Position numbers and translations under genes: made by a program | Source: an uncultured Eubacteriales bacterium | GTDB lineage: Bacteria; Bacillota; Clostridia; Lachnospirales; CAYWBF01 | Assembly (NCBI GenBank): GCA_964456085.1 | Contig: CAYWBF010000001.1 | Coordinates: 1-29,269 of the forward strand | DNA: 29,269 nucleotides | Direction: 5' to 3' | Shown: positions 5,052 to 5,560 of the stretch, piece by piece | How positions within the stretch are numbered: the stretch's first letter is position 1 | Layout: every line of letters starts with the position of its first letter | Notes under the pieces: generated by a model | What the model was told of the DNA's origin: nothing | The model's database searches: none | The model's input: only the letters and a program-made list of their open reading frames with translations

Positions 5052-5099
5052 AAAAAAGTGCCGGTATAGCCAAATTTTGGATATACCGGCACTTTTTTT
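5052..5099 (+). terminator. Intrinsic terminator (probably bidirectional)
   Basis: AAAAAAGTGCCGGTATA / TATACCGGCACTTTTTTT. Confidence 0.9.
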
Positions 5100-5122
5100 G
5101 TGTGGGATAATTAATATTCGCG

Positions 5123-5161
5123 ATAGCATAGCTGCTTGTACCCATACAGCAGCTATGCTAT
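5123..5161. repeat. Perfect 14-bp inverted repeat overlapping the toxin promoter
   Basis: ATAGCATAGCTGCT (5123-5136) / AGCAGCTATGCTAT (5148-5161), 11-nt spacer. Confidence 0.9.
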
Positions 5162-5164
5162 AAT
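5136..5164 (+). promoter_or_regulatory. Sigma-A promoter of the type I toxin
   Basis: TTGTAC-17 bp-TATAAT with TGc extended -10. Confidence 0.75.
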
Positions 5165-5221
5165 TGTTCTACACAAAAGCATAAGGGCGAAAGGCTTGCA
5201 CCTCTGAAAGGAGGTGGGTCT

Positions 5222-5311
5222 ATGTCAGTTTACGAGGCGTTAATTTTAATGCTGACGTTTGGGATTTTTTTATTATCCCTGTTGACATATATTTCTCTAG
5301 AAAAGAAATAA
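5222..5311 (+). CDS. Type I toxin, putative holin-like toxin (BsrG/BsrE/BsrH/TxpA-like), 29 aa
   Basis: AAAGGAGGTG SD; MSVYEALILMLTFGIFLLSLLTYISLEKK*, a single TM helix with Lys tail and the MSxYExLxxMxxFG start typical of this family. Not in the ORF track. Confidence 0.85.
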   Translation: MSVYEALILMLTFGIFLLSLLTYISLEKK

Positions 5312-5430
5312 CCGCCCCAACGCAAAGGTAAGCGGTTATAAGATGAAATACAACATTAAACTGCAAGCCTACCGCCTTTAAAGCGGTCTGTGTAAAAAAG
5401 GGGTGTTCGAGCACTCCCTTTTTTATGCTA
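5299..5430 (-). ncRNA. Putative cis-antisense antitoxin RNA (~130 nt; ends approximate)
   Basis: Own promoter (5436-5464) and terminator (stem 5339-5308, G-U pairs favour the minus strand, followed by TTCTTTTCT); complementary to the toxin's last codons and 3' UTR. Confidence 0.65.
5400..5424 (+). terminator. Terminator of the toxin mRNA
   Basis: GGGGTGT-TCGA-GCACTCCC followed by T6. Confidence 0.7.
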
Positions 5431-5435
5431 ACCAT

Positions 5436-5464
5436 ATTATAATATACTATTCAAATATTGTCTA
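5436..5464 (-). promoter_or_regulatory. Sigma-A promoter of the antisense RNA
   Basis: Minus strand TAGACA(5464-5459)-17 bp-TATAAT(5441-5436), pointing toward the toxin; no convincing protein gene downstream. Confidence 0.75.
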
Positions 5465-5514
5465 TTAAAATATAAAAATTAAGTTTATCAAAAATATAGC
5501 CTTAAAAATTTCAA

Positions 5515-5560
5515 AAAAGCCGTTGGCAAAATCCATTATCTGGTTTTGCCAACGGCTTTT
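5515..5560. terminator. Intrinsic terminator of the LysM gene
   Basis: AAAAGCCGTTGGCAAAA / TTTTGCCAACGGCTTTT, 17-bp arms. Confidence 0.9.

Follow-up and report, generated by a model that had tools for sequence, protein, structure and literature searches.

A chromosomal cassette from a gut clostridial lineage with the predicted organization of a bsrG/SR4-type toxin-antitoxin module

The window analyzed here, a stretch of 29,269 nucleotides read on the forward strand, comes from a gut-metagenome MAG (3.03 Mb in 569 contigs, 92% complete) whose DnaX protein is nearest to those of Lachnospiraceae and Anaerotignum MAGs, at 44-50% identity, and near-identical sequence was found solely in DNA runs labeled gut metagenome, while a search for RNA runs listed none. 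A 330-base gap between genes in this window contains a cassette in which a putative toxin gene faces a putative antisense RNA gene. A profile search of the neighbors identified an amidase, GerM, a LysM protein, dnaX-ybaB-recR, dnaB, rplI and gdpP, and revealed no phage genes within ~12 kb of the cassette. Since the neighbors over this distance are ordinary chromosomal genes, with housekeeping functions among them, the initial annotation was correct to place this copy outside any obvious prophage; a prophage or mobile-element location is typical of the BsrE-G-H family, without defining it, and is not that of the window copy. Public contigs of the probable source run match exactly over 5089-5524 but stop short of the flanking genes, which means that the GerM-cassette-LysM join rests on the MAG assembly, and no allele lacking the cassette was seen in the metagenome contigs of three DNA runs (~5x, with no contig reaching the flanking genes).

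The cassette is bracketed by strong bidirectional terminators, as had been proposed. The upstream insulating hairpin (5052-5098), which follows the GerM-like gene, is an inverted repeat of 96% complementarity built from an A-run, 23-nt arms and a T-run, and the downstream one (5515-5560), which follows the LysM gene, was found both by a terminator scan and as an inverted repeat. All six features of the initial annotation, from the toxin promoter to the antisense terminator, were confirmed to be present where it had put them.

The toxin ORF (5222-5311, plus strand, stop codon TAA at 5309-5311) encodes a 29-aa peptide that has a single hydrophobic helix and a KK pair at its C-terminus. The proposal that this small hydrophobic ORF belongs with the BsrE, BsrG and BsrH toxins, for which a search against Pfam Hol_Tox (PF16935) had been suggested, was borne out by a score of 41.5 bits against a cut-off of 23.3, and the peptide has the length (~25-40 aa), single hydrophobic helix and basic C-terminus of this class. 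At the RNA level, the Rfam BsrG covariance model (RF01412) aligns over its full length (model positions 1-259) to plus-strand positions 5172-5419 with 61.3 bits, above the gathering score of 55. When reference loci were fetched by tblastn with the peptide, members were recovered from a Spbetavirus phage, a B. subtilis plasmid and the Brevibacillus phage Jimmer1, which score 214, 114 and 120 bits, respectively, with RF01412; all three are organized like the window cassette, down to a hairpin beginning at the stop codon, and their peptides align to the window peptide with 56-59% identity, in keeping with the proposed likeness. Peptide tblastn alone found these relatives, as blastn of the cassette DNA against the phage and plasmid collections gave no match. 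The statement that the cassette is invisible to standard annotation was overstated: PF16935 and RF01412 both pass their thresholds, and standard pipelines do see the family, because RefSeq (PGAP) labels relatives 'putative holin-like toxin'. In Bacillus phage BUCT082 (L126:582-695), the CDS deposited at the Hol_Tox locus uses the wrong frame, and it is a 27-aa toxin ORF that matches the family.

The genome-wide search for paralogs that had been called for found 10 RF01412 matches in the source genome, along with 8 Hol_Tox ORFs above the cut-off, and the window copy has the second-best Rfam score among the 10 paralogs. This count is a lower bound, because contig C66 starts (position 1) inside a cassette, an observation which also shows that assembly breaks at these repeats. 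As for relatives, RF01412 has matches in 15 of the 41 genomes sampled from this order, and some of these genomes have tandem triplets. Across 301 sampled genomes of the class, Hol_Tox scores above the cut-off in 28, and the source genome tops this sample in copy number (8 versus 4 for the next best). The tandem triplets, whose cassettes lie ~340 bp apart in two relatives (G036:C46:20633-21567 and G039:C112:132-1138), are reminiscent of the way in which ibs/sib and ldr/rdl are arrayed.

Several copies depart from the window cassette in their coding region. In one paralog (C76, L006:1500-1751) and two relatives (L033 and L035), the A-run that encodes the Lys residues ahead of the stop has lost or gained a single base, so that the toxin frame continues to 38-66 aa; these length changes may represent a slippage hotspot, pseudogenisation or sequencing error. 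Another paralog (C47, L010:1495-1757) is divergent, with a 21-aa peptide that lacks the Lys tail and an Rfam score of 30 bits, and this copy is probably decaying.

The paralogs also bear on which strand encodes a protein at this locus. The minus strand has a 71-aa open frame of its own (5220-5435), and this could be the real gene, with the plus-strand peptide being incidental, yet we regard this as extremely improbable, since the longest minus-strand ORFs of the nine other paralogs range from 21 to 71 aa in other positions and frames, the ATG of the 71-aa frame lies upstream of the predicted antisense start, and it is the plus-strand peptide that passes Pfam. This minus-strand frame was rejected as a gene on its lack of conservation among the paralogs.

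The toxin promoter (5136-5164, plus strand) was correctly recognized as TTGTAC (5136-5141) and TATAAT (5159-5164) separated by a 17-nt spacer. Its -10 element is a 6/6 match that is extended by TG-n (TGcTATAAT), and its -35 element is weak, matching the consensus at 3/6 positions, which explains why a consensus scan did not list this promoter. Paralogs have TTGAAA or TTGATA, a 17-nt spacer, and TATACT or TATAAT at the same site. An inverted-repeat search also revealed that the toxin promoter is overlaid by a perfect palindrome (5123-5161) with arms of 14 bp and a spacer of 11 nt, such that the -35 element lies in the loop and the -10 element overlaps the right arm, without flanking A/T runs. 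When this palindrome was searched for as a repeated operator or REP-like element, no second copy was found genome-wide, and other paralogs instead have a different hairpin that abuts the -35 element. The palindrome may serve as an operator, or else as a hairpin that keeps antisense transcription from reading through. In four paralogs (C204, C39, C129 and C47; L001, L003, L009 and L010), the hairpin is an AAGAC...GTCTT structure whose 3' arm enters the -35 element TTGAAA; it is preceded by an A-run, reads as a minus-strand intrinsic terminator, and might catch antisense read-through. The combination of a weak -35 element and a unique palindrome over the promoter means that expression of the window copy might be low or might be regulated in another way.

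Transcription from this promoter would produce a toxin mRNA of ~255 nt (5171-5425, plus strand, from the predicted start to the terminator U-tract), the extent of which is supported by RF01412 and by its fold. The minimum-energy fold of this RNA is -89 kcal/mol (z = -6.6), and it contains the proposed hairpin that sequesters the Shine-Dalgarno (SD) sequence (5199-5216), in which CACCUCU (5199-5205) pairs with GGAGGUG (5210-5216) across a GAAA loop. In this hairpin of 6-7 bp, which is kept with compensatory changes across homologs, the SD (GGAGG, 5210-5214) has an unpaired probability of ~0.

The mRNA is also predicted to be closed by pairing between its ends. The initial annotation had noted complementarity between AGGCTTGCA (5192-5200) and TGCAAGCCT (5362-5370) and between TACACA (5170-5175) and TGTGTA (5389-5394); both helices are in the fold and are supported by covariation, but they form only part of a three-segment structure, since a third long-range helix (5182-5189/5373-5380) had been missed. 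In the fold, this closing helix consists of 5171-5175/5389-5393, 5182-5189/5373-5380 and 5192-5199/5363-5370 (5+8+8 bp). Its 5' arms (5171-5199, plus strand) have 69-83% of alignment cells paired with compensatory changes across 35 sequences, and its 3' arms (5363-5393), which are supported by the fold and by covariation, fall within the stretch that the predicted antisense RNA would cover. The innermost helix has the SD hairpin stacked on it, and the toxin intrinsic terminator (5394-5425), which a terminator scan placed at 5400-5424 as had been claimed, directly follows the outermost one. This arrangement of a long 5'-3' closing helix (P1), a terminator directly after it, and an SD held in a stem is that of the family, as judged by fold and covariation.

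Several comparisons support this nested structure in the 35-sequence alignment. Overall, 80.3% of cells are paired, versus 44-53% with slid partners, and 28 pairs have changed on both sides; the covariation score is 0.235, versus at most 0.135, and none of 500 shuffles reaches it, although such shuffle statistics overstate independence because the paralogs and relatives are related sequences. Within the terminator, compensatory changes occur in 5/7 scored pairs of the nested structure and in 8/9 pairs of the RNAalifold prediction. RNAalifold on a wide MAFFT alignment returned the SD hairpin and the terminator only, and the long-range helices were specified by hand. When the alignment is read by eye, the two inner helices of several relatives are fused into one continuous helix of ~15-17 bp. 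The partner of GGGCG differs between the Rfam model, which uses the post-stop CCGCCC, and the nested fold, which uses CCGCCU (within 5373-5380); most copies have both partners, and the post-stop pairing would cross the 5192/5370 helix as a pseudoknot.

On the opposite strand, a convergent promoter (TAGACA-17-TATAAT, 5436-5464, minus strand) matches the consensus at 11/12 positions. To place it in context, sigma-70-type promoters (at least 10/12 matches) were called in the 76 nt past the toxin terminator of 34 cassettes, comprising the 10 paralogs and 24 cassettes from 12 other genomes. An opposite-strand promoter is found in 28 of these, with a -10 element that ends 8-13 nt past the toxin U-tract, versus 1/34 on the plus strand and ~1.6 expected from shuffles; the pattern across the cassettes is far beyond chance. 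From the positions of promoter and terminator, the antisense RNA is predicted to be ~130 nt long (5296-5429, minus strand) and to be complementary along its whole length to the toxin mRNA, from the final codons through the 3' UTR and the terminator; its predicted fold is -40.1 kcal/mol (z = -2.9).

The antisense terminator (5300-5339, minus strand) is a hairpin (5339-5332/5315-5308) followed by a U-rich tract. It lies over the toxin stop codon (5309-5311), as had been described, and its 16-nt loop is the reason that a simple scan missed it. Across the 35 sequences, this hairpin is 92.9% paired and has six pairs with double-sided changes. The A-run of the Lys codons, TAA and ACCGCC are nearly invariant across the alignment, which suggests that the toxin Lys codons double as the template of the antisense U-tract. 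Unitigs of 31-32 nt with a depth of 300-500, versus ~5 for the flanks, match window positions 5282-5317 in two gut runs (X1 and X2), and this Lys-codon/stop/ACCGCC core appears to be common to very many cassettes across that gut community. Sequence signals therefore place a convergent antisense gene on the 3' side of the toxin gene, where it would overlap both the end of the ORF and the 3' UTR, as in members of the family. The antisense RNA has no Rfam family of its own; it scores 23.1 bits (E = 2.1) with RatA (RF01776) against a cut-off of 49, so it was rejected as a RatA homolog by sequence.

The state of these elements also bears on whether the window cassette is a silent or decaying relic, assigned to the right family but no longer expressed or toxic. 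The weak -35 element and the palindrome over the promoter could be read in this way, and other cassettes have decayed (the frameshifted C76, L033 and L035, and C47 with its 21-aa peptide). Nevertheless, the ORF, the SD, both promoters (each with a 6/6 -10 box), both terminators and all of the helices of the window copy are intact, and its Rfam score is second-best among the 10 paralogs, which makes the relic interpretation very unlikely.

The reading we prefer, with a probability of about 0.85, assigns the cassette to the BsrE/BsrG/BsrH (Hol_Tox) family of type I toxin-antitoxin modules, as a copy located on the chromosome. The family models, the covariation and the positionally conserved antisense promoter all uphold the initial view that it is built like bsrG/SR4 and bsrE/SR5. 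In such a module, the ~255-nt mRNA (5171-5425) would encode the 29-aa single-helix membrane peptide, and the convergent promoter, which lies ~12 nt past the toxin terminator, would produce the ~130-nt antisense RNA. This RNA would end at the stop-codon hairpin, with its U-tract templated by the C-terminal Lys codons, and, by analogy to bsrG/SR4, would pair with the last ~125 nt of the toxin mRNA. The resulting duplex would be a substrate for RNase III, leading to decay of the mRNA as in the bsrG/SR4 system; a gene for this enzyme is present in the source genome (PF14622, 141.8 bits, contig C61).

A second layer of control would act on translation. Antisense pairing would displace the 3' arms of the closing helix and free the 5' AGGCU (5192-5196), which would then pair with GGUCU (5217-5221); the SD hairpin would reach ~12 bp instead of 6, and translation would be blocked, again by analogy to bsrG/SR4. 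When positions 5300-5425 were blocked in the fold to mimic antisense binding, the SD hairpin grew from 6 to 12 bp, with AGGCU (5192-5196) pairing to the SD-AUG spacer GGUCU (5217-5221), and the unpaired probability of this spacer fell from 0.26-0.99 to 0.01-0.28. The 5'-only (nascent) folds of most homologs form the same extended SD hairpin, which suggests that the toxin would be untranslatable before the 3' UTR is made, because the nascent transcript forms the same long hairpin. If the antisense RNA were lost, the peptide would be made and, by the same analogy, would damage the membrane or envelope.

The same architecture could also serve a small membrane regulator that is dosed by the antisense RNA rather than chiefly a killing toxin. 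ComI, encoded by plasmid pBS32, would be one example, and a modulator of envelope biosynthesis, of the kind reported for BsrG, another. ComI is the top NCBIfam match of the peptide (33.1 bits), BsrG disturbs envelope biosynthesis without membrane permeabilization (cited in PMC6563280), the window copy sits amid envelope- or sporulation-type genes (amidase, GerM and the LysM protein), and most copies lie among ordinary chromosomal genes. The neighbors of other paralogs include typA with a MurA/AroA-type gene, chemotaxis receptors, an aldo-keto reductase, an amino-acid kinase, flagellin, and DeoR with Opp, and 1 of the 10 paralogs (C204) is phage-adjacent, adjoining a phage capsid and a prohead protease gene. 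Against a regulatory role, the ComI score does not reach the equivalog cut-off of 55, toxic products are typically the ones kept silent by several tight layers of control, and the flanking genes differ at every paralog, so that a functional tie to the envelope genes is not indicated. On balance we consider a dosed regulator unlikely, and the assignment of the peptide to ComI (NF052249) was rejected at 33.1 bits.

The dispersal of the cassettes raises another possibility, to which we give little weight. The presence of at least 10 dispersed copies, nearly all of them bracketed by terminators among ordinary genes, might reflect a role beyond prophage maintenance, for instance in an abortive-infection or stress-dormancy network or as a self-spreading cassette, and the palindrome at the window copy might then be an acquired transcription-factor operator.

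On its sequence, the type I module described here is a real but ordinary copy of a bsrG/SR4-type system, and the novelty that was implied for it did not hold up. BsrE-G-H/as-BsrE-G-H, with the same gene arrangement, is named among the search families of T1TAdb (PMC8594479), and a report from 2010 described TxpA-like toxins in Clostridiales (PMC2887945); the toxins covered by a 2019 review on type I systems of clostridia are unrelated ones from C. difficile (PMC6563280). The value of this locus is chiefly in annotation, as it provides a delimited toxin ORF, mRNA and antisense RNA where gene callers may skip a 29-aa ORF. In addition, it illustrates that, even away from prophages and in a deep clostridial lineage of the gut, the bsrG/bsrE design keeps all of its parts, namely the closing helix, the SD hairpin and an antisense terminator built on the toxin Lys codons. 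The ten paralogs and their relatives form a natural covariation set, and the folds lend in silico support to the proposal that family members in general lengthen the SD stem on antisense binding. Two points are of minor interest, namely the expansion in copy number and the unique palindrome at the window toxin promoter, and the cassette opens no new question.

Among known systems, hok/sok shares one principle with the window cassette, as long-range 5'-3' pairing keeps its full-length mRNA closed. In contrast, the peptide and RNA of hok/sok (plasmid R1) are unrelated to those described here, Sok targets the 5' leader, and activation by 3' processing is not indicated in the window cassette. The txpA/RatA system of the skin element is closer, with a convergent antisense RNA that overlaps the 3' end and RNase III-dependent decay expected in both, but the window antisense RNA differs from RatA in sequence, scoring just 23.1 bits on RF01776, where the cut-off is 49. 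ComI, the competence inhibitor of pBS32 (NF052249), is similar at the peptide level, as the best NCBIfam match, with 29/30 positions aligned; a B. subtilis plasmid peptide is 65.5% identical to the window peptide by tblastn.

The window peptide is most like the subgroup formed by bsrE/SR5 and bsrH/as-bsrH (B. subtilis P6 prophage and skin element, respectively), which has the peptide pattern MS.[FY][EQ]AL.LML.FG.F...LLTYI..KK, and these systems also have an antisense RNA on the 3' side that overlaps the end of the ORF. SR5 may act by promoting decay only. For bsrG/SR4 of the B. subtilis prophage SPbeta, structure probing of the bsrG mRNA defined a helix P1 that joins nt 1-35 with 232-262 and is followed one nt later by the terminator (Jahn & Brantl 2013, PMC3834814). 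Binding of SR4 lengthens the bsrG SD stem from 4 to 8 bp and inhibits translation while also promoting decay of the mRNA, and according to that paper no antitoxin RNA before SR4 had been shown to affect both processes (PMC3834814). The window cassette shares with this system the RF01412 match, a Hol_Tox-class peptide, a 5'-3' helix with an adjoining terminator, an SD in a short stem, and a convergent antisense RNA over the 3' part of the mRNA. It differs in the length of its peptide (29 versus 38 aa) and of its antisense RNA (~130 nt, predicted, versus 183 nt), in its location on the core chromosome rather than in a prophage, in its host, a gut clostridial lineage, and, relative to the RF01412 consensus, in the order of the 5'-UTR pairing elements. 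The lengthening of the SD stem on antisense binding, measured as 4 to 8 bp in bsrG and predicted in silico as 6 to 12 bp in the window cassette, is a response that both systems would have in common.
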